Below are positions 502 through 21,624 of a DNA stretch of 64,000 nt, piece after piece. The stretch comes from a virus (Duplodnaviria; Caudoviricetes), in the IMG/VR virus record IMGVR_UViG_3300031813_000669, positions 9,058 to 73,057 of that record; one strand, given 5' to 3'. The notes under the pieces are model-generated. The model saw only the letters and a program-made list of their open reading frames with translations, made no database searches and was not told the origin of the DNA. The number at the start of each line of letters is the position of its first letter. The stretch's first letter is position 1. Made by a program: the position numbers and the translations under genes.

Positions 502-557
502 TGCTGATACTCCTGTTTAGTATTAGAGCCATTAAGTCTGCCAGGACTGTGAATGGC
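502..557 (-). promoter_or_regulatory. Structured endonuclease leader, copy A
   Basis: Minus strand reads GCCATT-CAC-AGTC-CTGGCA-GACT-T-AATGGC-TCTAATACTAAACAGGAGTATCAGCA-ATG, the same architecture as copies B and C. Confidence 0.75.
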
Positions 558-568
558 ATTTTTTGTGC

Positions 569-598
569 TTGACAAAAACACCTAGTTTGGTGTATAAT
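569..598 (+). promoter_or_regulatory. Sigma70-type early promoter
   Basis: TTGACA-18 nt-TATAAT upstream of the small-gene cluster. Confidence 0.7.
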
Positions 599-601
599 AT
601 G

Positions 602-609
602 TATTTATA
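602..609 (-). promoter_or_regulatory. T4-type late promoter
   Basis: TATAAATA on the minus strand upstream of leader A and the endonuclease. Confidence 0.6.
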
Positions 610-633
610 TTAGTTTGTAATTGGAGATAAGTA

Positions 634-846
634 ATGTTTGATACATGGTTTGATAAAGTTTTCTTTGGTTTTTTGGGTTTATTGTTTTTTGCAATGATTA
701 TTATTCTTTTTGTTGGAATGCCTATGAGTGTTCATATAAACGAACAATGTTATCAGAAAGGGTATACTGGTGGTGTGTATACCAGTAATGGTATTTACTG
801 TCATAAGACAGGTCAATTTGGTGAAGATATTGTGGAGAAACTGTAA
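634..846 (+). CDS. Small hypothetical membrane protein
   Basis: 70 aa with one hydrophobic segment, GGAG SD, and TAATG stop/start coupling to the next gene. Confidence 0.7.
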   Translation: MFDTWFDKVFFGFLGLLFFAMIIILFVGMPMSVHINEQCYQKGYTGGVYTSNGIYCHKTGQFGEDIVEKL

Positions 847-1031
847 TGAATAGTCACGATAAATTTGGTGTAATTTTATTCAGTTTGTTGATTGTTGGTG
901 TCACTATTTGTATTGTAACAGGAATATTGACAAACAGAGAAACCACTAAACAATATATTGAAAATGGTTATCAGGAATGTTGGCATCCTATTTCTGGTAC
1001 TAAGTGGCAGAAGGAGTGTCAAAAGTTATGA
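846..1031 (+). CDS. Small hypothetical membrane protein
   Basis: 61 aa with an N-terminal hydrophobic helix; coupled start. Confidence 0.7.
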   Translation: MNSHDKFGVILFSLLIVGVTICIVTGILTNRETTKQYIENGYQECWHPISGTKWQKECQKL

Positions 1032-1324
1032 GTAAAGTTACCGATACTCCAACATTTTCATATACTGGAAATACTACATTTACTTTTGCAGACGCTCAAG
1101 CAGTTTCATTTACAACACCTATTGGTGATCTTTACCTTTATGGTAAGGATAATAAGACCAAATATATGTATGTTCCGCAAGATGATATTACTGTTCTTGA
1201 GTTATCATTAATCATGAGATTGTTTATCTCTGCATTACTTGCGTCTAGGGGATATATTCATTATAATTATTGGGGATATGTAAAGGAACATAATCTTGAA
1301 AGACATTTTGTGGAGAAACTGTAA
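1028..1324 (+). CDS. Hypothetical protein
   Basis: Likely ATG at 1028 overlapping the previous stop (ATGA). Confidence 0.65.
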   Translation: MSKVTDTPTFSYTGNTTFTFADAQAVSFTTPIGDLYLYGKDNKTKYMYVPQDDITVLELSLIMRLFISALLASRGYIHYNYWGYVKEHNLERHFVEKL

Positions 1325-1578
1325 TGAATGAAAAGATTAGAGAACTTGCTGAACAGGCGGAAGAAATGTGCTTGCGCGCCGAACCTTGGCGAATTTTGTC
1401 GGTCTGCCAATCAGTAGACAAGGTTTGGAGAGAAAAGTTTGCCGAATTGATTGTCAAAGAATGTGCAAGTATTTGCGAACATAGATATACCTATATGAAT
1501 AAAGATATGTCAGAAGGAGCATTTGAGGCAATGGCTTGTCACGATTCAATTTTAGAACATTTTGGTATTGAATATTGA
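1324..1578 (+). CDS. Hypothetical phage protein (MNEKIRELAEQA...EKFAELIVKEC type)
   Basis: Coupled start and SD; motif resembles small proteins common in proteobacterial phages. Confidence 0.7.
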   Translation: MNEKIRELAEQAEEMCLRAEPWRILSVCQSVDKVWREKFAELIVKECASICEHRYTYMNKDMSEGAFEAMACHDSILEHFGIEY

Positions 1579-1590
1579 GTAATATTCCAT

Positions 1591-1657
1591 TATAAATAGA
1601 TATAGGTCACGGAATTGCAGTTCCCACCTATTCTAATACTATAACGGAGTATCAGCT
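1591..1657 (+). promoter_or_regulatory. Late promoter plus structured endonuclease leader, copy B
   Basis: TATAAATA (1591-1598), then ATAGGT-CAC-GGAA-TTGCAG-TTCC-C-ACCTAT-TCTAATACTATAACGGAGTATCAGCT-ATG. Confidence 0.8.
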
Positions 1658-2368
1658 ATGGATATTTATATCCCCACTATATTATTAATCAAACGACACA
1701 ATAAAACTGGAAAGAAGTATTTCCACAAAACTACCAAACTTGATTTAATTGAATCATATCCGGGTTCTGGAAAACATTGGAAAAAACATTTAAAGAAACA
1801 CGGTAATAATTGGACTAATATCTGGATTAGTGAAGTTTTCCATAATAAAGACGATTTAGTTGAATTTGCAGAATTTGTTAGTGAAGTATTAGATATTGTT
1901 AAAAGTGATGAATGGGCAAATCTCATACCAGAAAATGGATTAGATGGCGGTAGCATATCAGAATATTATACTGAAGATATTCGTAAGAAAATGAGTGAAT
2001 CTAAGAGAGAGTTTTTAAAGAATAATCCTAATCCACATATTGGTTTAAAAAGAAGCGAAGAAACCAAAAGAAGAATAGGAGAGAAATCTAAAGGAAGAAA
2101 ATCTTGTCTTGGTTGGATACCGTCTGAAGAAACTAGAAAGAAAATAGGAAATGCTAATAGAGGTAAAATACGAACATTAGAAACAAGAAAACTAATGTCT
2201 GAAAATCACAAGGGAAAATTACATTCAGAAGAAACCAAAAATAAACTAAGAGAAATTAATAAAGGGAAGAAAATGGTTTTTGTTGAGAGAGTATGTCCAT
2301 ATTGCAATAGAATTGGCAAAGGTCCAAATATGACTAGGTATCATTTTGATAATTGTAAGGAGAAATAA
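1658..2368 (+). CDS. GIY-YIG-like homing endonuclease with NUMOD3 repeats and a C-terminal Cys-rich tail
   Basis: KKYFHKT...YPGSGKHWKKHLKKHG catalytic-type region, NLIPENGLDGG, repeated HSEETKxK motifs, CPYC...HFDNC. Confidence 0.85.
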   Translation: MDIYIPTILLIKRHNKTGKKYFHKTTKLDLIESYPGSGKHWKKHLKKHGNNWTNIWISEVFHNKDDLVEFAEFVSEVLDIVKSDEWANLIPENGLDGGSISEYYTEDIRKKMSESKREFLKNNPNPHIGLKRSEETKRRIGEKSKGRKSCLGWIPSEETRKKIGNANRGKIRTLETRKLMSENHKGKLHSEETKNKLREINKGKKMVFVERVCPYCNRIGKGPNMTRYHFDNCKEK

Positions 2369-2369
2369 T

Positions 2370-2591
2370 ATGATTGGTGAAAAGGTTGATAGGTTCTCAT
2401 TTGAACAACAGATTTTCGATTGTTGGAATGTAACAAAGGATATTAATACACTATTCGAAGCAGTAGTGGAAAAGGATTTGACAAAGGATCAGATTTCTAA
2501 TACACTATTGGGTATGCACCAGTTATATGAATTGAAGTTTGGTAAGTTATTTGATATGTTTGAAGAATTGTCATATAAGAAGGAACTGTAA
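2370..2591 (+). CDS. Conserved T4-like-phage hypothetical protein
   Basis: ATG at 2370 with GGAG SD; FSFEQQIFDCWNVTKDI motif. Confidence 0.7.
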   Translation: MIGEKVDRFSFEQQIFDCWNVTKDINTLFEAVVEKDLTKDQISNTLLGMHQLYELKFGKLFDMFEELSYKKEL

Positions 2592-2965
2592 TGTCTTGGT
2601 GTAGATGGTCAACACATTGTGATAATGGTAGAGATTCGAACCTATATGTTTATGAGGGTGGAGAAGGTCTTTATATTCATGTTGCAGGAAGGCATCTTAT
2701 TAATTGGGAAGATGCACCAAAGGAAATGTTGGAATCTGAAATGACACAAGAAAATGTCCAAGAATGGATTCGACAATATGACATTAGGTCTAAATGGATA
2801 GAAAAACATGGTGTATTTGGTCCTATCGGTCTACCTTATGATGGTGAAACTTTTATTCTTAACAACAAAGAAGATATTAAGAACACTCTTGATATGTTGA
2901 AGGAAGCAGGGTATAATTTCCCTGACCTTATCTATGATTATATTGATGAATTTGAGGAAGAATAA
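2591..2965 (+). CDS. Hypothetical protein
   Basis: 124 aa, coupled start. Confidence 0.7.
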   Translation: MSWCRWSTHCDNGRDSNLYVYEGGEGLYIHVAGRHLINWEDAPKEMLESEMTQENVQEWIRQYDIRSKWIEKHGVFGPIGLPYDGETFILNNKEDIKNTLDMLKEAGYNFPDLIYDYIDEFEEE

Positions 2966-3291
2966 TGGAAGAAGTTAGACACAAACATTATGAATATATT
3001 ATTGCATGGGCTAAAGGTGCAAAGATTCAACGAAGTGTAAAACAATATGATGTGGTTCCCACCCGTAAAGAACCACAATTCATATGGATGGATGATAAAA
3101 ATCCTACATGGTATGAAAATGATGAATACCGTTTGAAACCAGTATATAAATCCCAAGAAGTAAAGATTACACTTTTATATCATAATTGGTATATTGAACC
3201 AGTGGATGAGGGTAAGGGTAACTGTCTTATCACTTATAATGCTGTTGATGAACAAATTATTGATATTACTATTTATATAATTTGGAGTTAA
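2965..3291 (+). CDS. Hypothetical protein with RHKH..II.AWA.G..IQ...EYR.KP module
   Basis: N-terminus paralogous to 4385..4855. Confidence 0.7.
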   Translation: MEEVRHKHYEYIIAWAKGAKIQRSVKQYDVVPTRKEPQFIWMDDKNPTWYENDEYRLKPVYKSQEVKITLLYHNWYIEPVDEGKGNCLITYNAVDEQIIDITIYIIWS

Positions 3292-3294
3292 AAT

Positions 3295-3480
3295 ATGCGT
3301 GTCTATCTAGTATGGTTGACAGCTGGCAGGTCACATTCTGCCACATTAGTTACTGTTTTCAAAACTCGAAAGGCCGCAAAGGCTTTTATTGATAAGGAAA
3401 TTGATCTTAAAAAGTCTCTTAGCATTCAAGAGGTCGTGGTGCTCGATGATGACTCGGAAGACGCACCACTAACACAATAA
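3295..3480 (+). CDS. Small hypothetical protein
   Basis: 61 aa with GGAG SD, followed by a terminator. Confidence 0.6.
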   Translation: MRVYLVWLTAGRSHSATLVTVFKTRKAAKAFIDKEIDLKKSLSIQEVVVLDDDSEDAPLTQ

Positions 3481-3492
3481 AATCAATGACTT

Positions 3493-3527
3493 AGGGACGC
3501 ATTTCCTTCCTGGTTGCGTCCTTTTTT
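3493..3527 (+). terminator. Intrinsic terminator
   Basis: GGACGCA...TGCGTCC stem followed by T6. Confidence 0.75.
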
Positions 3528-3616
3528 ATTGTCTGTCACTCTGCCTTGCAGAACTTCACCCTCCGCCGCTAACAAATCCTGCCAGCTCTGTTTCTTCCTG
3601 GTTGCCGTCCAGCCTC

Positions 3617-3644
3617 TTGACATCCACCGTGGTTGTGTTAGAAT
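3617..3644 (+). promoter_or_regulatory. Early promoter with extended -10
   Basis: TTGACA-16 nt-TAGAAT, with GGTTGTGT preceding the -10. Confidence 0.65.
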
Positions 3645-3691
3645 GTATCCATAGTTTGAGACAACACATTGATTTTTTAGGAGATTATATT

Positions 3692-4009
3692 ATGAAAGAT
3701 ATTGATAATGTTTATACTTTGGTTGATAGTGTAAACCACACAGTAGAGAGTTTTGTTTTTGACCACATGACCAAGACCAAGGCAGAGAATCTTGGTCTTG
3801 ATAGCCGTGCTGGTTATACCTTATATGTGAATGGTGATTGTATTGCGGTTACAAAGTATAATGATCGTTCACTACAGTATTATGGTGGTTTTGAGTATGT
3901 TGATTCGGCTGATCGTGTAGAACTTGGAGAATATGTATTCTATATGGCTGAATCTGATCGGGTTCTTAATTGTATTGAATGTTTTAATGAAGTTGAAGTA
4001 GGAGTTTAA
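3692..4009 (+). CDS. Hypothetical protein
   Basis: ATG at 3692 after AGGAG SD, preferred over the upstream TTG at 3602. Confidence 0.7.
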   Translation: MKDIDNVYTLVDSVNHTVESFVFDHMTKTKAENLGLDSRAGYTLYVNGDCIAVTKYNDRSLQYYGGFEYVDSADRVELGEYVFYMAESDRVLNCIECFNEVEVGV

Positions 4010-4010
4010 T

Positions 4011-4392
4011 ATGAAGATTGATCGTAATACCCTTATCGAAATGATTGCCAATCAGATGACTGATAATGCTGATCTTGATGATCTGATGGATTATTATTAT
4101 AATGGAACTGTTGACTTTCTTGATGACCTTTCCGATGAGGAATTGCTTGAACAGGCAGATTGGGTTGGTGTTACCAGTGATGCCGAAGATGAGTAATTGG
4201 GATGAATTCAATGATGATTGTTTGCACCATCATGGTAAGGTATTAACAGGAGAATTCAAGCATTTTTGTCACGAATTCGATTACCTGCCTATTGATGAAA
4301 CGGTATTTGAATTCCAGTTTTGTACCTGTGTTTATATTGATTGGGATATGAATAAGAAACGTAAATTAGTTGAGGAAATGAGAAATGAATAA
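4011..4392 (+). CDS. Two small acidic hypothetical proteins (4011..4196 and about 4189..4392)
   Basis: Tightly packed ORFs with SDs and overlapping starts. Confidence 0.6.
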
Positions 4393-4855
4393 TAGACATA
4401 AACACGCTGACATTATCCATGCTTGGGCAGAAGGTAAAGAGATTCAGTATTATTCTAAAATTTTTAAAGACTGGCTTGATTTAAGTGAACGTGAACCATC
4501 TTGGAATCTGGGTGATGAATATAGAGTAAAACCAGAAACTCCATATGATAAGATTATTGAATCAGTTGTGAATGAAGTTGATTTTGAAAGTATTCATAAA
4601 ATAATGATTGCTCTTAATTGGACATGGAATTTTGCAGACAAAGATTGTCGTGGTGGATACAAATCAGGAGTACCTACTATCCATGATATGAAAAATACGG
4701 TTATACGACTGACAAATGAACTTCTAGTAAATAAGTTATATGAAAATTCTACTGGGGGATTTACAGTAAAGTGGTATAATAATTGTCGTACCACTATTAC
4801 AGTAAGTTTTAAAGCTGTTTCTGATATTTTTGTTCCTGTTGAGAGGATTATATGA
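4385..4855 (+). CDS. Hypothetical protein with RHKH...AWAEG..IQ...EYRVKP module
   Basis: Paralogous N-terminal module, coupled start. Confidence 0.7.
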   Translation: MNNRHKHADIIHAWAEGKEIQYYSKIFKDWLDLSEREPSWNLGDEYRVKPETPYDKIIESVVNEVDFESIHKIMIALNWTWNFADKDCRGGYKSGVPTIHDMKNTVIRLTNELLVNKLYENSTGGFTVKWYNNCRTTITVSFKAVSDIFVPVERII

Positions 4856-5271
4856 CTCGTATTGTGATCAATGAATGCTACGGTGGTTTCGGTTTAAGTA
4901 GAAAAGCTGTTCTTCGATACCTAGAAATTAAGGGACAACAAGTATGGGTTGAACCTGATAAATGGGGTGATAGTTATTGGTTGGTTGCACCAGAAGATCG
5001 TATGATTCTTAAAAGTGGACCAGATTTTTATTCTATGAGTTTTGAAGATCGTATTGAACATAATAGAATCTATGAAGAACAAACTTTCTGTCCTCGTAAG
5101 GTAGGAAGAGATGATCCAGTATTAGTTCAAGTGGTTGAAGAATTAGGTAGGCAAGCGAATGGTGGCTATGCCCAATTAGAAATTGTAGAAATTCCTGATG
5201 ATGTTGATTGGGAAATTGAGGAATTTGATGGTATGGAACATATCGCTGAAAAACATAGAACTTGGAGATAA
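4852..5271 (+). CDS. Widespread conserved phage hypothetical protein
   Basis: VINECYGGFGLS...RDDPVLVQVVEELG...EIPDDVDWEIEEFDG.EHIAEKHRTW motif. Confidence 0.8.
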   Translation: MTRIVINECYGGFGLSRKAVLRYLEIKGQQVWVEPDKWGDSYWLVAPEDRMILKSGPDFYSMSFEDRIEHNRIYEEQTFCPRKVGRDDPVLVQVVEELGRQANGGYAQLEIVEIPDDVDWEIEEFDGMEHIAEKHRTWR

Positions 5272-5670
5272 TTATGAATAAAAACACTGTGATTATTGTT
5301 TTGGGTATTATTGGTCTGTCTTTGTTTATTGATAAGGTGGCCACAAACCATAGTGAGATTAAACAGGATCCCACTAACCAATATCTGTATGATGAAAAGG
5401 AAACTAAGCTTGATAAGCAATATCAAGAAATACAAAAGACCTTGACTGTTATTGAATCTGAAATTAAGAATCTGGAGAAGTAAAATGACATATCGTGAAC
5501 TGCTTGACAAACTTCAAGTTATGGCTGAGTTTGAACCTACAATGCTTAACCGTGACGTTATGGCATCATATGAAGATTCTGAATTCTTCTCTGTGGATAA
5601 TATCATGGTGGAACCTCTTGGTAATGATTATCATGATAATAAGCAACCTCTATTAATTCTTGGTACTTAA
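5262..5670 (+). CDS. Two small hypothetical proteins (5262..5483 membrane-anchored; about 5485..5670)
   Basis: ORF track and gene packing. Confidence 0.55.
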
Positions 5671-5774
5671 TCTCATCAACGGAGGACATAGCCATGGTAT
5701 CAAGTGGAAATGTCTTTGTCAAGCTGTAATATATACTTGTGACCATTTGGTCAATTTAAAAAGAGGAAAATACT

Positions 5775-6812
5775 ATGGAGATATACAATGTCCTGTTTCA
5801 GGATATTTCATATCTGTGGATGATATTCTTCATTATGATCTCTGCCGGACTAGCAAAGGAGTATAAACTATTTGCCCCGGCTTACGCCTATGTTAAGAAT
5901 ACATTCCGCAGTAATAAATTCGTAGTAGTTATCCTAAGCGCAATCGGTGGTATTCTGCCGATTGAAGGTCGAGTTACTGTATCAGCTGGGTTACTTGATA
6001 CGGTGGCTCCAAAATGTTGTCATGGCCGACAAAAGTTAGGAATCGTGGACTATCTAGCGACACACCACTATTATATGTGGTCACCGTTAGAGAAAACTGT
6101 TATTCTACCTATTGCGGCTTTTGGTCTTACATATTGGGGCTGGCTCACCTTAATTGCACCCATGTTGATTGTTAGTTTGGTATTCATTACATGGTACATT
6201 TGGCACCAGGTACATGATGAAGAAGTACCAATCACACCTGGGAACTTCAAAATCAGTTCAGTATTGAGAGATCCAATACCTATGTTCCTTGCAATCGGAG
6301 CGTATGTATATGGTATCGACCATATTGTATGTTTTGGATTGCTGACAATGTATTATATTCTTATTACACAACAATGGTCTCCTAGGAAACTGTTGGGATA
6401 TGTTAAATGGAATGTATTGACTATTGTTGGTGCAGTTATTGTCTTAGGAAACTACATTAAAACCCACGAGCAAGATTTTCATAATCTTATTCTTAATATT
6501 GGTATTGATGTTCACACCTATTCCGGTCTGGCGACAATTTCTGCTATTGGTTTTCTTGCTAGCTTCTTAATGGGAAGTTCTGGTAAGTTTGCGGCGATTG
6601 CTGTATTAATGTCTCAAGTCTACGGACATGAGTATTTTCTATGGTTTTTTGCAGTAGATTTCTCAGCGTATCTATTGAGTCCTACCCATAAATGTGTCAT
6701 TATCGGTCACAAGTATTTCAATACACCATTGAAAACTTATTATAAGGCCTTAGGCACTTGGGGATTCCTTGTATTATTAACAGGAGCAATAGTTACATAC
6801 TTCAAAATTTAG
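5775..6812 (+). CDS. Polytopic inner-membrane permease-like protein (possibly ion-transporter superfamily/DUF401-like)
   Basis: 345 aa with many hydrophobic segments, His/Cys motifs (KCCHG, THHYY, SPTHKC), GAGG SD. Family assignment is inference. Confidence 0.6.
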   Translation: MEIYNVLFQDISYLWMIFFIMISAGLAKEYKLFAPAYAYVKNTFRSNKFVVVILSAIGGILPIEGRVTVSAGLLDTVAPKCCHGRQKLGIVDYLATHHYYMWSPLEKTVILPIAAFGLTYWGWLTLIAPMLIVSLVFITWYIWHQVHDEEVPITPGNFKISSVLRDPIPMFLAIGAYVYGIDHIVCFGLLTMYYILITQQWSPRKLLGYVKWNVLTIVGAVIVLGNYIKTHEQDFHNLILNIGIDVHTYSGLATISAIGFLASFLMGSSGKFAAIAVLMSQVYGHEYFLWFFAVDFSAYLLSPTHKCVIIGHKYFNTPLKTYYKALGTWGFLVLLTGAIVTYFKI

Positions 6813-6821
6813 GAGTATTAC

Positions 6822-11047: not shown

Positions 11048-12202
11048 TTGAGGTTTTATATTATGAAGTTAAATCAAAATCAAAAGGACTTTCTACAAGC
11101 TGTTAAAGAGGTGCTTGGTGATAAGGTTATTGTCAACCGAGCAGAAATCGACCAAGTGGTTTCGGAGAAAGGTGTTAAGTTTCCATTCTGGTTGACTGCC
11201 AAATCAACTTATCGGGTAGGTCGTGGAGAGTATTCACTACCAGGTACCAATCAGGTAGCTCCCCAGGTAACTATTCCGGAAACAGTTGAAGCAATGGCTC
11301 AGGTAGTTCATCTTCGACAACCTAAACTGATTGATGAATCTGATTCATCTGTTCCTGAAGTATGGCCTGATTATGTACCTTTTGGTTTTTATAAAGACCT
11401 GTTGAATATCGTCAAGTCTAGTATGTTTTATCCTATCTTTATTACTGGTCTTTCTGGTAACGGTAAAACTTTGATGGTTGAACAGGTATGTGCAAAACTG
11501 AATAGGGAGTGTATCCGTGTTAATATCTCTATCGAAACTGATGAATCTGATCTATTGGGTGGTCCTACTCTGGTTAACGGTAATGTTGTTAATAGAGATG
11601 GCCCGGTTCTGGTAGCAATGAAACGTGGTGCTGTTCTTTTGATTGATGAGGTGGATCGTGGCTCAAACAAGCTTATGTGCCTGCAAGGTATTCTTGAAGG
11701 AAAACCATACTTCAACAAGAAATCAGGCGAAATGGTCCACCCAGCACCAGGTTTCAACGTCATTGCAACCGCAAATACCAAAGGTCGTGGATCAGAAGAA
11801 GGTCGGTATCTTTCGCAGATTCTTGACGATGCCTTCCTTGAAAGGTTCCCGATTACTGTTGAACAAGAATATCCAGATGTAAAGACTGAAAAGAAGATTC
11901 TATCTCCTTTGATTGATGATCCGGAATTTGTTGATAATCTTGTTAAGTGGGCTGATGTGGTTCGTATCTCTTTTGAACAAGGTGCTATTGATGAACTTAT
12001 TTCAACCCGTCGATTGGTTCATATTGCGAAAGCTTATTCTATCTTTAAGAATAAGATGAAGGCGATTGAACTTTGTGTAAATCGGTTTGATGTAGATACT
12101 AAAACTGCATTCTTGGATTTGTATACAAAAGTTGATGAAAAAGTGGAAGATCAAACTCCACTTGAACAAGCTGAAAATAAAATGAAGGAAATTCCATGGT
12201 GA
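11048..12202 (+). CDS. MoxR/CobS-like AAA+ ATPase
   Basis: GLSGNGKT, TDESDLLGG, LLIDEVDRG, TANTKG, AFLERF. Own promoter TTGACA-17-TACCAT at 11004-11032. Confidence 0.9.
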   Translation: MRFYIMKLNQNQKDFLQAVKEVLGDKVIVNRAEIDQVVSEKGVKFPFWLTAKSTYRVGRGEYSLPGTNQVAPQVTIPETVEAMAQVVHLRQPKLIDESDSSVPEVWPDYVPFGFYKDLLNIVKSSMFYPIFITGLSGNGKTLMVEQVCAKLNRECIRVNISIETDESDLLGGPTLVNGNVVNRDGPVLVAMKRGAVLLIDEVDRGSNKLMCLQGILEGKPYFNKKSGEMVHPAPGFNVIATANTKGRGSEEGRYLSQILDDAFLERFPITVEQEYPDVKTEKKILSPLIDDPEFVDNLVKWADVVRISFEQGAIDELISTRRLVHIAKAYSIFKNKMKAIELCVNRFDVDTKTAFLDLYTKVDEKVEDQTPLEQAENKMKEIPW

Positions 12203-12807
12203 TTGATATTATGTCTAATGTGATTTTTCATCCTATGAAAGATTCTAGCAGATTGGATCTTGGTGTCCGACCCAAGTGTTCGATTGATGGTTGTGATAAT
12301 GACTGTCAATTTATGGGTTCTTATAAGAAAAACGGAGAACCACAATTCAGAAAGATTTGTTCATCCTGTCATTCCAAAATTACAGCTGAAAAAAGAGGAT
12401 TGAAAAACATGGGACAGGTCATTGCTGTTAATGCTGGTTTTTCTTCGATTTCGGAATATCAAAATGCTTTGGCTGTAGAAAAGGGATTTACTGATTATTA
12501 TGATTATCAGAATGCTTTAGCTATCGAAAAGGGTTTTAAGAGTTATTCTGATTACCAGAATTCAAAACATCCTTATCGTAAATACAGAAAAGATTATTGT
12601 GAGAACATTGATGGTAGACTAGGTTACGTTTGTACCACAACCATTCATTGGGATGGTATGTTAGATGTGGATCATATTGATGGAAATCCGTCAAATAATA
12701 ATCCATTGAATTTGCAAACATTATGTAAGTGTTGTCATGCTCTCAAGTCTAACATGAGTGAAGATTATAAAACAGAAGGGAGAAAAGCCCTTGGAATCAA
12801 ATATTGA
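12196..12807 (+). CDS. HNH endonuclease with Cys-rich N-terminus and internal repeats
   Basis: DVDHIDGNPSNNNPLNLQTLCKCCH; CSIDGC and CSSCH motifs. Confidence 0.85.
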   Translation: MVIDIMSNVIFHPMKDSSRLDLGVRPKCSIDGCDNDCQFMGSYKKNGEPQFRKICSSCHSKITAEKRGLKNMGQVIAVNAGFSSISEYQNALAVEKGFTDYYDYQNALAIEKGFKSYSDYQNSKHPYRKYRKDYCENIDGRLGYVCTTTIHWDGMLDVDHIDGNPSNNNPLNLQTLCKCCHALKSNMSEDYKTEGRKALGIKY

Positions 12808-13903: not shown

Positions 13904-13945
13904 TTGACAAAAATGGTCAGAAATTGATATAATCCAGTATAAATA
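13904..13945 (+). promoter_or_regulatory. Tandem early (sigma70) and late promoters for pmoC
   Basis: TTGACA-18-TATAAT (13904-13933), then TATAAATA (13938-13945). Confidence 0.7.
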
Positions 13946-14030
13946 AAATTGATGATTTGGGGTGTGACAGGATGACGCACCAACCCGACAAGGATGTTTA
14001 AGTGTAACTTTAAGATGTTAAGAGGTAATT

Positions 14031-14807: not shown

Positions 14808-14837
14808 ATTTAAGATTAACTTACGTCTAATCTTATG

Positions 14838-14863
14838 AAGGGGAACTTCGGTTCCCCTTTTTT
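14838..14863 (+). terminator. Intrinsic terminator with UUCG loop
   Basis: AAGGGGAAC-TTCG-GTTCCCCTT followed by a T run. Confidence 0.9.
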
Positions 14864-14878
14864 ATTTCGGAGAAAAAT

Positions 14879-15364
14879 ATGATTAAACTATTTTTATTAC
14901 TTTTATGTTTTAGTACTGCAAACGCAGAAACACTTCCTAATCCAAACATTCCACCAGTTTCGGATTTGATTAACGGAGAAATTCTTCCAATGCAACCTTC
15001 ATTGGCAAAAGAACAGTCGATGGAAATGAATCAAACGATTGGAAAGATGACACTCTTTACTCATAAGACACTTAGAGAAAAGGGTACCAGGGCACCTATT
15101 CATGTTCATCCTTTTGGTGGACAAACTTGTGTTGTCTCTGGTGAAATGACACTATACATGGACGGTGCAAAACCTGCAAGAAAAGTCGCGGGAGAATGTT
15201 ATTGGATGCCACCTAAGATTCGTATGAGTGGTGTTAATACTGGTGATACTGATGCCCTAATGTTCGATACTTTCCTTGTGGACACTGAAGAAGATATATG
15301 GATTATTGTGGAACCAAATCTTCCATTCAATCAAAAGCAATATAATACATTTAAACATCACTAA
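14879..15364 (+). CDS. Exported cupin-domain protein
   Basis: Signal peptide ending TANA; cupin motif PIHVHPFGGQTCVVSGEMTLY and AGECYWMP. Confidence 0.8.
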   Translation: MIKLFLLLLCFSTANAETLPNPNIPPVSDLINGEILPMQPSLAKEQSMEMNQTIGKMTLFTHKTLREKGTRAPIHVHPFGGQTCVVSGEMTLYMDGAKPARKVAGECYWMPPKIRMSGVNTGDTDALMFDTFLVDTEEDIWIIVEPNLPFNQKQYNTFKHH

Positions 15365-15368
15365 AAAT

Positions 15369-15393
15369 AAAGGGGAACTAAGTTCCCCTTTTT
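15369..15393. terminator. Bidirectional intrinsic terminator
   Basis: AAAGGGGAAC-TAA-GTTCCCCTTT between convergent genes. Confidence 0.85.
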
Positions 15394-15394
15394 A

Positions 15395-15751
15395 TTATGC
15401 TCTTGATGGATATAAACCATTTATACAAATAATATAAATTGGTTCTTCAGAATAATTCTTCTGAATTTCCCTAGATTCTACGACCGGATCACACAAATAT
15501 CCAAAATTACCAGGATCACCAGTTTCGTGGGATCTTTTAACTTCAGTATTTCTAACAAAGTATTCTCTTTCTTTGAAACTCAAATTAGGTAATGCAAAAT
15601 CATTAATGCCGTCTCCACCATAAGTTGTGCCTAAGATAGAATACAAAGCTTCAAAATGTTTAATTGGTAATTTTTGACCATTACATAATGCAAATCCTTC
15701 TGGCGCATAATTACCAGCAAACAATTTAATTACTCCCAAATACTCTTCCAT
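15395..15751 (-). CDS. Phage tail-collar domain protein
   Basis: YLGVIKLFAGNYAPEGFALCNGQ.L.I....ALYSILGTTYGGDG...FALPNL; late promoter TATAAATA at 15787-15780. Confidence 0.9.
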   Translation of the reverse strand: MEEYLGVIKLFAGNYAPEGFALCNGQKLPIKHFEALYSILGTTYGGDGINDFALPNLSFKEREYFVRNTEVKRSHETGDPGNFGYLCDPVVESREIQKNYSEEPIYIICINGLYPSRA

Positions 15752-15791
15752 ATTATTCTCCTAATTTAAAAATACGAATTATTTATAGGGC

Positions 15792-15820
15792 TTGACAACC
15801 CTGTGTGGTTGTGTTACAAT
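15792..15820 (+). promoter_or_regulatory. Early promoter with extended -10
   Basis: TTGACA-17-TACAAT with GGTTGTGT. Confidence 0.75.
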
Positions 15821-15849
15821 GGTCCCCTAAATTATGTTATGGTGATCTT

Positions 15850-16230
15850 ATGTCAAATCTTGATGCGTTCTTTGAACCCGCCACTCTCCATGATCTTGGT
15901 AAATTTCTGACCGATGACGAACAGAAATCATTGACCAAGGCAGAAGTCCAATCCAAAATTCGTCAGCGTCGATCTCAGATGCTGGTGCATTCCCGTATCT
16001 ATTATGTCCTTGATGAAAATATCGTTTCTGACGATAAATGGCAACAATGGGCAAACGAATTGCGTGATCTACAAGAACAATATCCTAAGTATTGTAAAAT
16101 AGATTTTTATGATCGTGAGTTTGCAACGTGGAATGGTGATTCCGGTGCATTCCTTCCGTTGAATGATCCTTATGTAGTGGGTAAGACTCAACAAGTTATT
16201 AACCAATGGTATAAAGAAAATGAAAAGTAA
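15850..16230 (+). CDS. Stand-alone NAD-dependent DNA ligase N-terminal (domain Ia-like) protein
   Basis: LVHSRIYYVLDENIVSDDKWQQWANELRDLQEQYP resembles LigA domain Ia; no adenylation domain. Confidence 0.7.
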   Translation: MSNLDAFFEPATLHDLGKFLTDDEQKSLTKAEVQSKIRQRRSQMLVHSRIYYVLDENIVSDDKWQQWANELRDLQEQYPKYCKIDFYDREFATWNGDSGAFLPLNDPYVVGKTQQVINQWYKENEK

Positions 16231-16607
16231 TACACCGAAAACCACCTATGATTCTGATGATTTGGGTATTATTTTATCTGGTCAAAAAGAAAGTAAACCA
16301 GTATACATGAAGTGTGCTTATAATTATTATAAGATTAAACGTGTGGTTGACATGGGTGATTTCTATATGTTAGAATCCCCCGAAGAAGATGGTGTTATAG
16401 GATTAGACGATGAGTAATATCTATCAACCTTTAGTATATACCAGTTTCAAAGGTAAATGTTATGAGTTTCCTGAAGAATTATCTGAAAGGTGGGATTTCC
16501 TAACTACTAAATTGGTATATGCAGAACAAGAGAATTTCGAAGAACTATTGCGTGGATATTCAATAGTATTTAAATATGAGTTCGGTCAATATGAGATAAA
16601 ATCTTGA
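16220..16607 (+). CDS. Two small hypothetical proteins (16220..16417, 16410..16607)
   Basis: Overlapping starts and stops. Confidence 0.6.
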
Positions 16608-16756
16608 GGTAATATTATGAATGATGAAGTAAAACAACTACTTCTTGATTGTCAGGTATTGTTTGAAATGGAATATGGTGATAAGTGGAAAATTCTAAGT
16701 AATGATTCTAAACTTAAACAAACCATGTTGAAATTGAAAGAAGTATTGGGTGAAGA

Positions 16757-17380
16757 ATGAAAGTATACATTGGACCATATACACATTGGATCGGACCATA
16801 TCAGATTGCTGATTGGTTAGAGCATTTTTGTGTTCTTGAAAGGGACCGTGATCGTATTGGTGAATGGTTAGCCAATACTTGGGTCAAAGATTTCTGTCAA
16901 TGGATTGAAGATAAAAAAAGCCGTAATATGTTTATTCATATTGACGGTTATGACGCATGGAATGCCGATGATACCATGGCAAGAATCATTCTACCTGTTA
17001 TGAGAAAGGTCAAGGAAAATAAACAGGGATATGGTTTTATTGATGATGAAGATGTTCCAGAAGAAATTCGTTCTACTAATGCTGGTCCTAAAGAAAATGA
17101 ATGGGATTGGGATGATAATGCAGAAAAGCGTTATGAATGGGTATTAGATGAAATCATCTGGGCATTTGAACAGATTCTAGCTCCTAATGCAGAAGACCAA
17201 TTCCATACTGGTGTTATTGACCATATATGGGAACCATGTGAAAACTCAAACCTGAGTAAATTAGGTCATGGACCAAAACATACCCATGAGTTTGATATAG
17301 ATGGATATAAGGTCTGGTCTAAGAGAATTGATAACGGAACAACCTTATTTGGTAAGTATTTCAGAACATTTTGGACTTAA
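16757..17380 (+). CDS. Conserved T4-like-phage hypothetical protein
   Basis: YIGPY..WIGPYQIADW; IHIDGYDAWNAD.TMARIILP; W..VLDEIIWAFEQ; GTTLFGKYF. Confidence 0.8.
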   Translation: MKVYIGPYTHWIGPYQIADWLEHFCVLERDRDRIGEWLANTWVKDFCQWIEDKKSRNMFIHIDGYDAWNADDTMARIILPVMRKVKENKQGYGFIDDEDVPEEIRSTNAGPKENEWDWDDNAEKRYEWVLDEIIWAFEQILAPNAEDQFHTGVIDHIWEPCENSNLSKLGHGPKHTHEFDIDGYKVWSKRIDNGTTLFGKYFRTFWT

Positions 17381-17391
17381 TGGTATAGTAT

Positions 17392-18409
17392 ATGTCGGAC
17401 GAAAATACAAAAGTAAAACATTCTAAACGTATATTTCATACTGAAACAGTTATTGCTAAGAGAAGAAAACTTCTTAAACAGTATAATATGGATTGGGATA
17501 ACAACAGAATGATTAAACAGAAACACCGTCTATCTAAGATGAATGGTATCAACTGTGGTAATCCGGGTTGTATGTTGTGCATTAACCCCAGAAAGTATGG
17601 TGAAAAGACCATTCAAGAATTAAGTTTTGAACAAACAGAAAAGTGGAGTGAAGAATGATTGAATTTGAGAAAGATACTTGGGAAGAGTTTGTATGCAATT
17701 TTGCTGGCAAATTAAGTGTTGGGTATACCATCGAAGATGCTTTGAAAAATTTTCTGAAAGAATATTGGACAGTTCTCAATGTTCTGGAAAGTAAAGCAAT
17801 GGAAGAAGAGAAAGAAGAATCTCTTGATGCTTACTTTGAACGCAGAATGAAACCTGTGTGGAATTATGTGTATAATCTGAATAGAGAAATTGGTAAGTTA
17901 AAGGCTGATGTTGCTCTATTGAAGGAAGCTGATGCTGCCAGAACAATGACTTATGGTCCTATAAAGTATCCAAATAATATTCCACCGACTCATGAATATC
18001 CACTGGATTGGTATAAAGTTACCGCACATTCAAATGCACAAGATAATCAACGTATTCCTGGTTTGATGCCAGAAGGATTTGCAACTACTGGTTATATGCA
18101 AGTAGTAGATCCAAAGTATACAGCTGCACAGATGAAAGATTGGTCTGGACTGAGGTTCGATGATCCGGCAGAGAGAAGGTAATGAATTTACTTAATTATT
18201 TTGGTGCTAGAAGGAGGTTAGTTGAGGTAAACAAAACCATTATGGCTATGGGTGGTGAAGAGGAAGCACCCCCATTACTTTTAGCTCAAAGTGATATGAC
18301 AGCTGATGAGGTAACATATTTCTACTATGAATCAATTTCTGATGTGATATATACTTTTATATTCTTATTGATTTTAATTGTTGGATATGGAGCAGCTGAT
18401 GCCCTGTAA
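17392..18409 (+). CDS. Three hypothetical proteins (17392..17658 with CGNPGC.LC; 17655..18182; 18182..18409)
   Basis: Coupled ORFs. Confidence 0.65.
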
Positions 18410-18911
18410 AAAAATGATATTGGATATTTCATTGTCAGAATTGAACAGTGAACTACAGTATGAAAAAGAAGGATTTTTCACCCGAAAAAACTCAAAAGGT
18501 GGAAAAATTATAGGTTCCAGAGCAGGAAATATTGATAGAAATGGTTATGTACACGTTTCCATCAATAAAAGAAGGTATCTAGAACATCGATTGGTTTGGT
18601 TGTATCACCACGGTTATTTACCAGATAACTTTATCGACCATATCAATAGAAATCCTTCTGACAATAGAATAGAAAATCTCAGAATTTGCCCAAATAATCA
18701 TAGACAAAATGCACAAAATACTGGCAAATTTTCACATAATACATCTGGACATAAAGGTGTAGGTTGGTCTCCAGGAAAAGGTAAGTGGAGAGCAGTAATT
18801 GGTGTTAAAGGTAAGAGTATACATTTGGGTTATTTCAAAGATAAAGTGAGTGCAATACAAGCTAGGAAAATTGCCGAAAAGCAATTCTTTGAATTTAGTG
18901 AAGAGGATTAA
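18378..18911 (+). CDS. HNH homing endonuclease with AP2 DNA-binding domain
   Basis: HRLVWLYHHG...IDHINRNPSDNRIENLR; NTSGHKGVGW...KWRAVIGVKGK.IHLGYF. Confidence 0.92.
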   Translation: MLDMEQLMPCKKMILDISLSELNSELQYEKEGFFTRKNSKGGKIIGSRAGNIDRNGYVHVSINKRRYLEHRLVWLYHHGYLPDNFIDHINRNPSDNRIENLRICPNNHRQNAQNTGKFSHNTSGHKGVGWSPGKGKWRAVIGVKGKSIHLGYFKDKVSAIQARKIAEKQFFEFSEED

Positions 18912-18914
18912 ATA

Positions 18915-19651
18915 ATGGGTTTCGACCTAATAACAAAGAGAGATTGTCCGCATTGTGGTAAAGAAATTGGTGGAGGTCGTGGTAACCTAAAGACCCACAT
19001 GAAAAAGTGTGCCAAGAAACTTGGTATTCTCGAAGATGTATTTGTACCCGTAAAGGAAATAAAAGGAGAAAATGAAATGAGTCTATTTGTTGAAGTGCAT
19101 TCACTAGAAAAAGGGTGTCAGGTTATTATTAACCTAGATCATGTTATTGAAATTGCACCATTGGTTGCTGGTGGTTGTGCATTGTTTATGACTGATGGTT
19201 CTAATAAGATTTCGATCAATGTGGCTGATTCGTATGAACTATTCAAGCAGTTTGCCATGCAGACCGTTAGCTCAGAAGATATTGCAAGAAAGATTAAGTC
19301 ATTGAAGGGTGCATAATGTCTAGGATCAGTTTTACTTTTAGTGATAGAACGTATGAATCTATTGGTCCAGTGTGTAATGGTGAAAAACTTCAAAAACCAA
19401 AGAAACCTGAAAAGGTTGTTAATCTTGAAATTGATAATGTAGAATCGATGCACATTGCTGAAATTGTTCATCACTTTGAACAATTCTTGAAGTCTAGTGG
19501 ATATGTTATCTACGGAAATATTCGTGTTGTTAATCCTGGTTTCGAGTCACAACAAGAAAAATATTTTGGTACAATGTGGAAAGAACCTGATACTATTACA
19601 ACTGTAAATGTATCAGCACAAACTCCACAAAATGGTAGATGGCAACTATAG
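18915..19651 (+). CDS. Two hypothetical proteins (18915..19316 with N-terminal Zn-ribbon; 19316..19651)
   Basis: ORF track; CPHC...HMKKC. Confidence 0.6.
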
Positions 19652-19699
19652 TGTTTAGATAAATACCTGATTAATTAACAACTAATTAGGGATTTATAA

Positions 19700-21007
19700 A
19701 TGTTCATATTAGTAATAGACCCATGTGGTTTAACACTTGACTGGTGCCTACGCTGTATTGCAGCTGGGCACACAGTCAAACTTTTCACAGAAGGTAAAAA
19801 AGCAGAACCAATTGGACAGGGACTTGTTGATAAGGTAACCAATTGGAAAAAGTATGTTGATGTTGCTGATTTAATATTTTCTTCCGACAATCTGAAATAC
19901 ATGGATGAAATTGATGACCTTATCAAAAAAGGTTATCCAGTATTTGGTCCAGGTAAAAGAGCCGCAAAACTAGAACTTGATCGTATGTATGGTCAAGACG
20001 TTATCAAAGAATTTGGTGGTCCAATCATACCATCATATCCATTCAAGAATTACGACCAAGCAATTCAATTCATCAAAGATAATCCTAAGAGATATGTTTC
20101 TAAGCCAATAGGTGAAGAAGAAGATAAATCTCTGTCATATGTTGCAAAAGATGAGGCAGATATGATTGGATTCTTATCTAAGAGAAAAGAACTAGGTAAG
20201 GCCGCATCATTTATTCTACAAGAATTCAAACCCGGTGTCGAGGTAGCGGTAACAGGTATTTTCGGACCAGGTGGTTGGGAACCCTATTGGTGTGAAGGAT
20301 TCGAACACAAAAAATTAATGGTTGATGAAAAAGGTCCCAATACAGGTGAAATGGGAACTGTTATTCGTTACACCAAATACTCTAAACTAGCAAATATACT
20401 AATGAAACCAATGGAAGAAACTCTTCATAAGATTGGTTATGTTGGTATGTTAGACGTTAATGTTATTGTTGATGAAAAAGATGGTACACCATGGCCGATG
20501 GAATGGACCGCACGTCCAGGTTACCCGATGTTCAACATCATGTTGTCTCTCCATAAAGGCGATCCTGCCGAATGGATGTTAGATTGTGTCAAAGGTAAAA
20601 ACACTCTGGAAGTTGAGGAGAAGACTGCCGTTGGTGTTGTTATCTGCAACTCTGACTTCCCTTGGGCTAAGAAGCCAATCGAAACCTATCTTGATTTCCC
20701 TATTATCACAGATGATTGTGATATTGACCACGTTCATCCTTGTGAAGTAAAACTATGTACAACCATGAAGATGATTGATGATAAGGTTGTGGAAGATATT
20801 CCAGAATGGGGAACCGCAGGTACCTATGTTTGTGTTTGTACTGGTGTAGCTGATTCTATTACTGAAGCAAAAGATAAGGCTTATAAACAAATTAAAAATG
20901 TTAAAGTAGGAAATGACTACGGTTATCGTACTGATATTGGTGAAAAATGCGAAAAATATCTCAAAAAATTAAAGAAATTTGGTTATTGCACAGGATGGCG
21001 TTTTTAA
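19700..21007 (+). CDS. PurD-like (phosphoribosylamine-glycine ligase-like) ATP-grasp enzyme
   Basis: FGPGKRAAKLELDR, ILQEF..GVEVAV, EHKKL...EKGPNTGEMG, YVGMLDVN, EWTARPGYP. The canonical PurD GSGGREHA N-terminal motif is absent. Confidence 0.75.
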   Translation: MFILVIDPCGLTLDWCLRCIAAGHTVKLFTEGKKAEPIGQGLVDKVTNWKKYVDVADLIFSSDNLKYMDEIDDLIKKGYPVFGPGKRAAKLELDRMYGQDVIKEFGGPIIPSYPFKNYDQAIQFIKDNPKRYVSKPIGEEEDKSLSYVAKDEADMIGFLSKRKELGKAASFILQEFKPGVEVAVTGIFGPGGWEPYWCEGFEHKKLMVDEKGPNTGEMGTVIRYTKYSKLANILMKPMEETLHKIGYVGMLDVNVIVDEKDGTPWPMEWTARPGYPMFNIMLSLHKGDPAEWMLDCVKGKNTLEVEEKTAVGVVICNSDFPWAKKPIETYLDFPIITDDCDIDHVHPCEVKLCTTMKMIDDKVVEDIPEWGTAGTYVCVCTGVADSITEAKDKAYKQIKNVKVGNDYGYRTDIGEKCEKYLKKLKKFGYCTGWRF

Positions 21008-21558
21008 TCAATTTTCTTACATTTCCATCCTTTATATTGATTTAATTTATTTTTTGACACCATATTCATACAACCAACATTTAAATTATTTTCTCTACAA
21101 AACTTCGACATATTTTTTATAATATATGACTTTCCGGCAGGATCAATAATCAACCAATTACATGATTTTGATTCTGCCACTTTCAATATATGATTTTTAT
21201 CTTTTGGTTTACCCTTATTAATACATCCATATCTGTTACCTTTGAAATGTAAGCTTATTTCTTTTTTTCTTTTTTCTGTATGTTTGTAACCAATAGTACT
21301 TTCGCCGCCATCTGTTTTATTGTGTAGAATTCCAGATCCATTATCTTTTCTACCAAACCAACGTATGTAATATCTTTCCATCATCAAAGCTTGGATTTCA
21401 GACAAATCTTGTTTTATAAAGATTATTCTGGATTTGTCTTTCGGAGTGGAAATTCCATGTTTCCTATGACATTTATAGGCTCTATTTTGCTTTCCTTTTC
21501 CAACATAATATGGTGTATAATTTGAACGCAAATATAAATAAACGTAATAAATACTCAT
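21004..21558 (-). CDS. GIY-YIG-like (Seg-type) homing endonuclease
   Basis: YYVYLYLRSNYTPYYVGKGKQNRAY; ERYYIRWFGRKDNGSGILHNKTDGGE; NUMOD-like tail. Confidence 0.88.
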   Translation of the reverse strand: MSIYYVYLYLRSNYTPYYVGKGKQNRAYKCHRKHGISTPKDKSRIIFIKQDLSEIQALMMERYYIRWFGRKDNGSGILHNKTDGGESTIGYKHTEKRKKEISLHFKGNRYGCINKGKPKDKNHILKVAESKSCNWLIIDPAGKSYIIKNMSKFCRENNLNVGCMNMVSKNKLNQYKGWKCKKID

Positions 21559-21624
21559 GCTGATACTCCTGTTTAGTATTAGAATAGGTGGGGATTGCAG
21601 TCCCGTGACCTATATTTATTTATA
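21559..21624 (-). promoter_or_regulatory. Late promoter plus structured endonuclease leader, copy C
   Basis: TATAAATA-AAT-ATAGGT-CAC-GGGA-CTGCAA-TCCC-C-ACCTAT-TCTAATACTAAACAGGAGTATCAGC-ATG. Confidence 0.8.

Follow-up and report, generated by a model that had tools for sequence, protein, structure and literature searches.

Introduction

Few selfish elements are as common in large phages as homing endonuclease genes, and the way in which harm to the carrier is avoided has been worked out for only a few T-even genes. I-TevI, I-TevII, I-TevIII, segB and mobE carry hairpins that sequester the ribosome-binding site (RBS) and contain an embedded late promoter (PMC2988022). In IS10/Tn10 (RNA-IN/RNA-OUT) and in IS200 (art200), the mobile element's own enzyme is under cis-antisense control (PMC5006887, PMC4513863). 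For aquatic phage-like metagenome loci (GOS 'fractured genes'), Dassa et al. (2009; PMC2677866) reported that 15 of 16 endonuclease genes have hairpins in the 5'-untranslated region and that 10 have a TATAAATA element, together with a pair of conserved, mutually complementary motifs; the genes concerned are free-standing GIY-YIG and Vsr-like genes. In cyanophage S-PM2, CfrI, an antisense RNA overlapping a homing-endonuclease gene, has been detected (Millard et al. 2010, as summarized in PMC2984593). Here, a cassette is described that heads homing-endonuclease genes in a 64,000-nucleotide stretch of viral DNA (the window), which comprises bases 9058-73057 of the 73-kb IMG/VR record IMGVR_UViG_3300031813_000669, a record estimated to be 44% complete. 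The favoured reading, held with moderate confidence, is that the cassette makes a cis-antisense RNA of ~60-65 nucleotides (nt) over the leader and the Shine-Dalgarno (SD) sequence, in the style of IS10 RNA-OUT.

Results

The cassette and its first hairpin

Three copies of the cassette, A, B and C, could be identified in the window (Table 1; positions are those of the window). In all three, hairpin 1 has an outer stem of 6 bp and an inner stem of 4 bp, separated by a CAC bulge on one side and a single bulged C or T on the other, and a loop of 6 nt; it is followed by TCTAATACT-N5-GGAGTATCAGC and, after 0-1 nt, by ATG. The pattern of this 25-nt tail matched three times in the window and not once in 100 shuffles. 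An earlier sequence-only reading of the window had placed the three copies, their architecture and their covarying stems exactly as they are found here. It had also described a TATAAATA upstream of each copy, and this motif is indeed present in all three, 3 nt off hairpin 1 in B and C and 45 nt off in A. A fourth cassette lies just outside the window on the minus strand of the same record, at G000:C1:4716-4807 (L001:1400-1720; tail 4734-4758; G000:C1 positions are those of the whole record). Its outer stems are GGGTAT/ATACCC, its inner stems GATG/CATC and its loop has 7 nt, and it heads a 206-amino-acid (aa) zinc-finger open reading frame (ORF) that matches PHROG endonuclease VII/HNH families and not GIY-YIG. 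A covariance model search of the whole record returned exactly these four cassettes.

Further cassettes were collected from IMG/VR by three exact-pattern scans with at least 119 stretches each and by a fourth with 50 stretches. After removal of duplicates at least 158 distinct cassettes were obtained, and all counts out of 158 given below are among the matches listed. Each scan anchored one arm only of the second hairpin (P2), which left G.U variants of the gene (sense) strand detectable. Pairing and covariation statistics were calculated from 125 aligned copies. In addition, 21 copies were gathered with the covariance model, giving a sample free of bias from sequence anchors.

The covariation seen among the window copies proved to be strong in the larger alignment, where all 10 pairs of hairpin 1 have changed on both sides. 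Double-change cells numbered 376, compared with 98 ± 10 in shuffles, and 96% of the cells were paired, compared with 26-47% when the partners were slid. Hairpin 1 is thus truly conserved as a helix, with no constraint on the sequence of its pairs. Its bulge (C-A/G-C) and its closing pair, which is G-C in 123/125 copies, are conserved beyond the needs of pairing. Non-Watson-Crick cells of the outer stem comprised 20 A.C and 2 G.U on the sense strand, and those of the inner stem were mixed (12 A.C, 21 G.U). G.U pairs are very scarce on both strands of hairpin 1, as is to be expected if both transcripts have to fold. No conserved complementarity that could form a pseudoknot between the loop or bulge of hairpin 1 and the conserved tail was found on inspection by eye.

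The conserved fold of P2 fits the strand opposite the gene

In the sequence-only reading, a second hairpin overlapping the SD was described, alongside the RBS-sequestering hairpins known from I-TevI and mobE. P2, formed by CTAATACT with AGTATCAG, is present as a pattern; its sense-strand helix is marginal, with a mean of -1.7 kcal/mol and 83.1% of the cells paired. It contains an invariant A.C mismatch, and sense-strand covariation of P2 was not seen in the 125 copies; a sequestering hairpin in the mRNA is not supported. On the opposite strand the same sequence forms P2', an 8-bp helix with a mean of -6.5 kcal/mol and 99.9% of its cells paired. In the 158 copies, P2 has 223 non-Watson-Crick cells; read on the sense strand, all 223 are A.C, with no G.U among them. 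Pair 5, for instance, is TA in 101, CA in 44, CG in 13 and TG in 0 copies on this strand, and position 3 of the half-site sets A against G in 157/158. In the usual variants, TCTAACACT, GGAGTACCAGC, GGAGCATCAGC and GGAGTGCCAGC, the mRNA helix is broken, whereas the opposite strand has a perfect helix with G.U pairs. Since A.C on the gene strand is G.U on the other, the conserved fold fits the strand opposite the gene.

The same asymmetry could be observed for the cassette as a whole. Over the whole alignment, 98.4% of the antisense cells are paired, compared with 90.3% on the sense strand, and the antisense outer stem likewise reaches 98.4%. RNAfold predicted the antisense core to be the more stable one in 158/158 copies (mean -16.8 versus -12.3 kcal/mol). 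For the four copies of the record, the antisense folds, consisting of two hairpins and a tail, have energies of -18.9 to -20.8 kcal/mol (z-scores -1.7 to -3.1), and the sense leaders -12.5 to -13.0 kcal/mol (z -0.7 to -1.0). Covariation is found in all three helices of the antisense fold. The anchor-free sample showed double-sided changes at 5/8 pairs of P2', G.U at pair 3 in 21/21 copies, and UG in 10, UA in 6, CG in 4 and AU in 1 at pair 5.

These data bear on two other explanations. In the first, the cassette would act as a leader on the sense strand only: hairpin 1, at the 5' end of the late mRNA, would be a stabiliser or the operator of a shared RNA-binding protein of phage or host, its C-R-C / C|U internal loop would be conserved for this purpose, and the 25 nt at the SD would form a protein site or translational element. 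This possibility is regarded as unlikely, although it would account for the late-promoter spacing, by which the mRNA would begin at the base of hairpin 1 (see below), for the C-R-C bulge and closing G-C pair that are kept beyond pairing need, and for the top pair of the inner stem, where G.U exceeds A.C on the sense strand. Stem-loops at the 5' end do stabilise mRNAs, as is said of the ompA leader in the work of Emory, Bouvet and Belasco from 1992. What a sense-only leader leaves unexplained is the A.C polarity of all P2 and nearly all outer-stem departures, the covariation of P2 despite -1.7 kcal/mol in the mRNA, and the frame-independent TATTTAT and the T/C-avoiding spacer presented in the following section.

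In the second, the element would work at the level of DNA, the CTAATACT-N7-AGTATCAG palindrome being the operator of a dimeric protein or hairpins forming in DNA that becomes single-stranded as it replicates or recombines. Symmetric changes in half-sites would mimic compensatory ones, DNA hairpins tolerate G.T as well, and I-TevI binds an operator at its own promoter (PMC2988022). An operator would, however, neither keep the asymmetric position 3 nor tolerate one-sided transitions of a single polarity. Moreover, the nucleases belong to unrelated families, and the precise spacing to the promoter-like motifs and U-tract points to transcripts, so that this explanation is hardly credible.

Mirrored promoter-like motifs and an opposite-strand U-tract

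On the sense strand, TAAATA is spaced from hairpin 1 by 5 nt in 91 copies, by 3 nt in 33 and by 4 nt in 12. With a promoter 3-5 nt upstream of hairpin 1, the late transcript would contain both hairpins, as had been proposed. The mirror image of TAAATA, TATTTA, follows the ATG in codons 2-4; it is present in 141/158 copies and lies 6-7 nt past P2 in 115/158. TATTTA(T) is kept in every reading frame (M-x-I-Y, M-Y-L, M-L-F-I) and before GIY-YIG and HNH proteins alike. Ile-Tyr is spelled ATTTAT in 98/108 cases at the N-terminus, compared with 12/71 internal cases in the same ORFs. On the opposite strand the mirrored motif reads ATAAATA and stands at a fixed spacing of 6-7 nt before GCUGAUACU. In T4 late promoters, TATAAATA occupies about -13 to -6, and with this spacing an RNA from the mirrored motif would begin at the conserved G of GCUGAUACU. 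Such a start would explain the C of GGAGTATCAGC, which follows AGTATCAG, is more than 90% conserved and has a pairing role on neither strand: the antisense RNA is predicted to begin with the G complementary to this C.

On the far side, A(C/U)UUUUAUUUAU comes after hairpin 1' of the opposite strand (about -10 kcal/mol), with AUUUUUU in its place in copy A and the fourth copy. Read on the sense strand, the spacer that separates the promoter from hairpin 1 consists almost entirely of purines (A 73/76/63%, T at most 14%), whereas the spacer after 198 other TATAAATA sites in the same loci has 30-39% A and 31-40% T. The 17 cassettes without an adjacent TAAATA retain the A-run, with 5.9 A in 10 nt; copy A (CACAAAAAAT) and the fourth copy (AATAAAAAAT) are among these 17. 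The mirrored motif and the U-tract are under selection at the nucleotide level. A promoter-like motif, two hairpins and a U-tract within ~75 bp, lying head-on over the nuclease leader, are arranged as in a small RNA gene.

TAAATA and TATTTA match as perfect reverse complements over 6-9 bp, and masking of the I-TevI type has to be considered here. In a read-through transcript (A)TAAATA would pair with TATTTA(T) past the AUG, closing a three-way junction over SD and AUG, and late transcripts, which lack the 5' arm, would get translated. The principle is established for I-TevI, I-TevII, I-TevIII, segB and Aeh1 mobE (PMC2988022), and in copy B an added helix, ATTCC-A-TTATA with TATAA-C-GGAGT (1584-1650, +), gives a 97-nt fold of -22.6 kcal/mol (z -3.6). 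Nevertheless such masking appears highly improbable as the function of the cassette. The TAAATA/TATTTA closing helix was rejected, as RNAfold did not predict it in the three extended leaders and its flanking bases show no clear covariation; with 7 bp, all A-U, closing a multiloop, it would be marginal in any case. Complementarity between the upstream 40 nt and the SD is weakly enriched (mean z -0.31; 11% below -2), an additional upstream arm facing the SD being confined to a minority of copies that includes B. The upstream neighbour is divergent in 75/129 scorable loci, hence there is nothing to read through, and the strand asymmetry would be unexplained. The added helix of copy B takes in part of the late promoter, the N5 and the SD, and could be formed only by transcripts reading through from the co-oriented gene upstream.

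A TGTCAA motif found upstream in ~23/158 loci was rejected as a part of the cassette, since its distance is variable; it looks like the -35 box of the promoters of divergent neighbours.

A proposed cis-antisense RNA over leader and SD

Strand asymmetry, the mirrored motif and the opposite-strand U-tract together point to an antisense transcript as the folded RNA. In this reading, each copy is a portable unit of ~85-95 bp with signals on both strands, and the 5' end of a free-standing homing-endonuclease gene consists of it. On the gene strand, the TAAATA core of a putative T4-type late promoter lies 3-5 nt ahead of hairpin 1, so that the late mRNA would start at the foot of this hairpin, and one unpaired base, the weak P2 with the SD, the ATG and three or four codons of the cassette (M-x-I-Y) would follow. 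The mirrored motif on the opposite strand would give a transcript that begins at the conserved G and folds into the stable 8-bp P2', whose loop would present the anti-SD CUCC; hairpin 1' and A(C/U)UUUUAUUUAU as a terminator-like tail would come next, giving a product of ~60-65 nt. Promoter activity of the mirrored motif, termination at the tail and repression of the nuclease by the RNA are inferences.

The predicted antisense RNA starts 1 nt past P2 and is complementary to the SD and the whole late leader, with the AUG at or just beyond its 5' end. It would pair with the mRNA, probably beginning from the complementary loops, and ribosome binding would be blocked and/or the duplex cleaved. Head-on interference of the two promoters, ~75 bp apart, may contribute. 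The outcome would be that the nuclease is kept low in late infection.

A shared, trans-acting 'truce' is a speculative extension of the antisense reading and is considered doubtful. Each antisense RNA would pair with the SD regions of all cassette-bearing nuclease mRNAs by means of the nearly invariant 25 nt (P2' and anti-SD loop) common to all cassettes. With 4-16 copies per genome, and with co-infecting phages, resident genes would throttle each other and incoming relatives, and the variable hairpin 1 might tune cis versus trans specificity, like loop changes in the incompatibility groups of plasmid antisense RNAs.

Several observations weigh against a cis-antisense RNA. TATAAATA is not enriched in the window (12 sites versus 10.9 ± 3.3 in shuffles), so the motif alone is weak promoter evidence, which is one of the reasons why our confidence is kept moderate. 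The use of T4-type late promoters by these phages is presumed from the T4-like character of their genes and from what has been published on T4. On the opposite strand, TATATA replaces TAAATA in the fourth copy and a few others. The tail past hairpin 1' begins with A plus C/U and has internal A's, and hairpin 1' was not called by a simple terminator scan, the scanner being unable to handle a bulged stem. Where the neighbour is divergent, a transcript from the mirrored promoter could serve this neighbour instead. The top pair of the inner stem slightly favours the sense strand (21 G.U versus 12 A.C), so the mRNA hairpin may matter too. Finally, the majority of copies are sequence-anchored and phylogenetically related, and the counts represent non-independent events.

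Nuclease genes headed by the cassette

The three genes of the window had been described as divergent GIY-YIG endonuclease genes. This is roughly correct and holds for A and C, which share a GIY-YIG-type domain: their N-domains are 43% identical and carry the signature Y..Y / YY[IV]GKG / R / E / N. In 24 relatives, Y5/Y7/Y9, P16-Y17-Y18-x-G20-K21-G22, R26, E61 and N80 are invariant, and the best profile matches in the PDB are GIY-YIG proteins (E 0.0036). Sequence-only PDB searches with single proteins gave nothing informative, and Pfam made no GIY-YIG call at its cut-off for any of A, B and C. Gene B belongs to a separate SegE-like group (43% identity over 87 aa to L032) but itself carries YFHKT instead of YLGKT, and similarity between the B and C proteins was undetectable.

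Among 139 downstream ORFs of at least 100 aa, Pfam identified NUMOD3 in 53, HNH in 19, HNH_3 in 7, HNH_5 in 7, HNH_4 in 2, GIY-YIG in 4, SegE_GIY-YIG in 3 and DUF7487 in 4, with single matches to TnsA-like, MTES_1575, T5orf172 and MUG113. This tally bears out the idea of a portable module that travels with unrelated endonucleases. The cassette is tied to homing-type nucleases, across GIY-YIG, HNH and PD-(D/E)xK types, and not to one fold. Autoregulation by the cognate endonuclease, which had also been suggested, is unsupported, because nucleases of unrelated folds share the same invariant sequence.

The first codons are part of the cassette, as M-x-I-Y precedes the actual GIY strand as an additional stretch in many of the proteins, for example in MSIYS..PHHYYVYAYLR. 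In copy B, MDIYIP is a cassette-derived N-terminal extension added before TILLIKR. Some cassettes head decayed ORFs (L023:108-198 minus, L103, L015, L022, L046), with ATG changed to ACG or 10-45 aa remaining; in L023 both promoter-like motifs are degenerate as well.

Kinship of cassette and ORF is discordant, since B and C have the same outer stems and unrelated proteins, whereas A and C have related proteins and different stems, and the cassette is joined to ORFs at varying points past M-x-I-Y. Both features would suit a cassette resembling the elements called PeSLs, small composite terminator/promoter motifs for modular shuffling in T4-like phages (PMC2839356, PMC4122927). The opposite-strand terminator together with outward and inward late promoters would then insulate the nuclease gene from its neighbours, the cassette would serve as a homology patch for shuffling of nuclease ORFs, and the short RNA would be a by-product. 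An opposite-strand terminator or promoter would matter for the divergent neighbours mentioned above, and in copy A the U-tract is followed by a perfect neighbour promoter. A terminator, however, requires hairpin 1' and the U-tract only, which leaves the covarying P2' with its invariant G.U unexplained, as well as the promoter 6-7 nt before P2'. A promoter with its own terminator within ~60 nt is how a small RNA gene is built, and PeSLs have early promoters and flank any ORF, whereas the cassette has late-type motifs and nuclease genes. Insulation and shuffling as its main function are therefore judged decidedly unlikely.

Distribution of the cassette

Cassette-bearing IMG/VR records range from a few kb up to 372 kb among the matches listed, and the covariance model found 1, 1, 4, 7 and 16 copies in five large records. 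The 16 copies are those of a 359,890-base jumbo-phage record (behind L031; L269-L294); their P2' sequences are strongly diverged, and all 16 retain the two promoter-like motifs as well as C-G, U-A and G.U as the basal pairs of P2'.

No Rfam family matched the cassette. At the gathering threshold, the whole window gave only a permuted transfer-messenger RNA (tmRNA), and in E-value mode (E up to 10) the best hit to the cassette regions reached 18.7 bits, against a cut-off of 45. Among 185,579 prokaryote genomes, exact matches to the cassette numbered 0. When two copies were compared by BLAST with 50,697 GenBank phage records, chance matches alone were obtained. The cultured phages S-SRM01, S-B68 and RSP15, which have homologous GIY-YIG genes, lack the cassette, as judged by reading the upstream DNA and by the covariance model. 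The cassette is real, widespread in uncultured T4-like and jumbo phages, and unannotated.

Other features of the record

Several features were observed next to the cassettes. In copy A, a perfect TTGACA-18-TATAAT promoter (569-598, +) lies directly past the opposite-strand U-tract and serves divergent genes from 634, and a small terminator-like hairpin, ACACCAAACTAGGTGT followed by TTTTGT (578-593, -), is found between the displaced late promoter and hairpin 1. In copy C, the second TATAAATA lies 7 nt beyond the mirrored ATAAATA, and a transcript from it would also span the AUG. Gene C overlaps tail to tail, by 4 nt (21004-21007), with a convergent 435-aa ATP-grasp-like ORF (19700-21007, +).

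A fifth nuclease gene, a 203-aa HNH endonuclease ORF (12196-12807, +; DVDHIDGN...CHALKS), has neither cassette nor late-promoter motif; it overlaps the end of the upstream gene and resembles a promoter-less mob-like insertion. The permuted tmRNA gene is in two pieces (24724-25082, +; Rfam RF04321, 83.4 bits).

Table 1. Features of the three cassette copies in the window (antisense RNAs with predicted ends)
Feature	Position	Strand	Remarks
Copy A, hairpin 1, GCCATT/CAC/AGTC/loop CTGGCA/GACT/T/AATGGC	528..557	-	sequence
Copy A, tail TCTAATACT-AAACA-GGAGTATCAGC	527-503	-	A-ATG at 502-499
Copy A, P2 arms CTAATACT and AGTATCAG, loop AAACAGG	504..526	-	SD GGAG 513-510
Copy A, late-promoter-like motif TATAAATA	602..609	-	displaced, 45 nt upstream of hairpin 1
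Copy A, ORF, GIY-YIG-type/NUMOD3 homing endonuclease	1..501	-	runs past window edge; complete 243 aa (L002:771-1499, minus)
Copy A, mirrored late-promoter core ATAAATA	490..496	+	equals TATTTAT, gene codons 2-4
Copy A, predicted antisense RNA	503..567	+	-19.1 kcal/mol, z -2.0; order G, P2' (CUGAUACU/AGUAUUAG), hairpin 1', AUUUUUUGUG
Copy B, TATAAATA	1591..1598	+	3 nt ahead of hairpin 1
Copy B, hairpin 1, ATAGGT/CAC/GGAA/TTGCAG/TTCC/C/ACCTAT	1602..1631	+	sequence
Copy B, P2 arms, loop ATAACGG	1633..1655	+	SD GGAG 1646-1649; tail 1632-1656
Copy B, ORF, SegE-like/NUMOD3 homing endonuclease, 236 aa	1658..2368	+	ATG at 1658
Copy B, perfect mirrored TATAAATA	1663..1670	-	within codons 2-5
Copy B, predicted antisense RNA	1590..1656	-	-20.8 kcal/mol, z -3.1
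Copy C, TATAAATA	21617..21624	-	3 nt ahead of hairpin 1
Copy C, hairpin 1, ATAGGT/CAC/GGGA/CTGCAA/TCCC/C/ACCTAT	21584..21613	-	sequence
Copy C, P2 arms, loop AAACAGG	21560..21582	-	SD GGAG 21569-21566; tail 21583-21559
Copy C, ORF, GIY-YIG-type endonuclease, 184 aa	21004..21558	-	ATG at 21558
Copy C, mirrored ATAAATA	21547..21553	+	codons 2-4
Copy C, second perfect TATAAATA	21533-21540	+	inside gene C codons 7-9
Copy C, predicted antisense RNA, P2' and hairpin 1', then AUUUAUUUAU	21559..21626	+	-18.9 kcal/mol, z -1.7

Discussion

One recognisable control unit is found across hundreds of nuclease genes with at least three catalytic folds, in up to 16 copies per genome. If the antisense reading is true, this would be the first known case of homing endonucleases under antisense-RNA control, and it would constitute a large new family of phage small RNAs that is absent from Rfam; a literature search found no paper on an antisense RNA of this kind. 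It would also be a clear case of convergence with the control of the IS10/IS200 transposases, and a new variant on a known control principle. In practice, the cassette offers a sequence tag for homing endonuclease genes and their boundaries in metagenomes and, again if the reading is true, a compact and naturally modular late-promoter/repressor part.

Among the known systems, the feature of Dassa et al. probably corresponds to the sense-strand view of this cassette, with TCTAATACT and GGAGTATCAG as candidates for its two motifs. It was read there as a translational hairpin of the mRNA, and no family, covariation analysis or opposite-strand reading was described. CfrI, as far as the summary of it goes, is likewise an antisense RNA of a T4-like phage that overlaps a homing-endonuclease gene, and it was detected experimentally, whereas the RNA of the cassette is predicted. 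It differs in its length of ~225 nt and in linking psbA to the endonuclease gene, and is not a repeated portable cassette.

PeSLs are also short, repeated and portable units of promoter and stem-loop at gene boundaries that act as points of recombinational exchange (PMC2839356, PMC4122927). They differ from the cassette in having an early (sigma-70-type) promoter and a same-strand terminator and in their association with miscellaneous ORFs, whereas the cassette is nuclease-specific, has late-type motifs on both strands and includes the SD and first codons. With the T-even and Aeh1 hairpins the cassette shares a late promoter, putative in the cassette, directly before a homing-endonuclease gene, RNA structure around the SD and, as predicted, low late expression, and the added helix of copy B, alone among the window copies, even has the feature of a late promoter in the 5' arm. 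In the cassette, however, the predicted late start precedes both hairpins, which would therefore remain in the late mRNA, a stable SD helix is absent from the mRNA, and the conserved fold is on the other strand.

The closest resemblance in control would be to IS10 and IS200. As in these, an outward promoter, here predicted, lies in the 5' end of the enzyme gene, and a short structured RNA of a similar size (~60-90 nt), complementary to leader and RBS, would provide self-restraint of a potentially harmful enzyme; IS200 likewise joins an antisense RNA to secondary structure in the leader. Whereas IS10 and IS200 concern transposase genes, the cassette sits on homing-endonuclease genes of lytic phages and is known here from sequence alone. 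Unlike in IS10 and IS200, both promoters are T4-late-like mirrors of each other, and the antisense U-tract is at the same time the complement of the mRNA promoter. A further difference is that the SD-proximal 25 nt of the cassette are nearly invariant over hundreds of otherwise unrelated genes.

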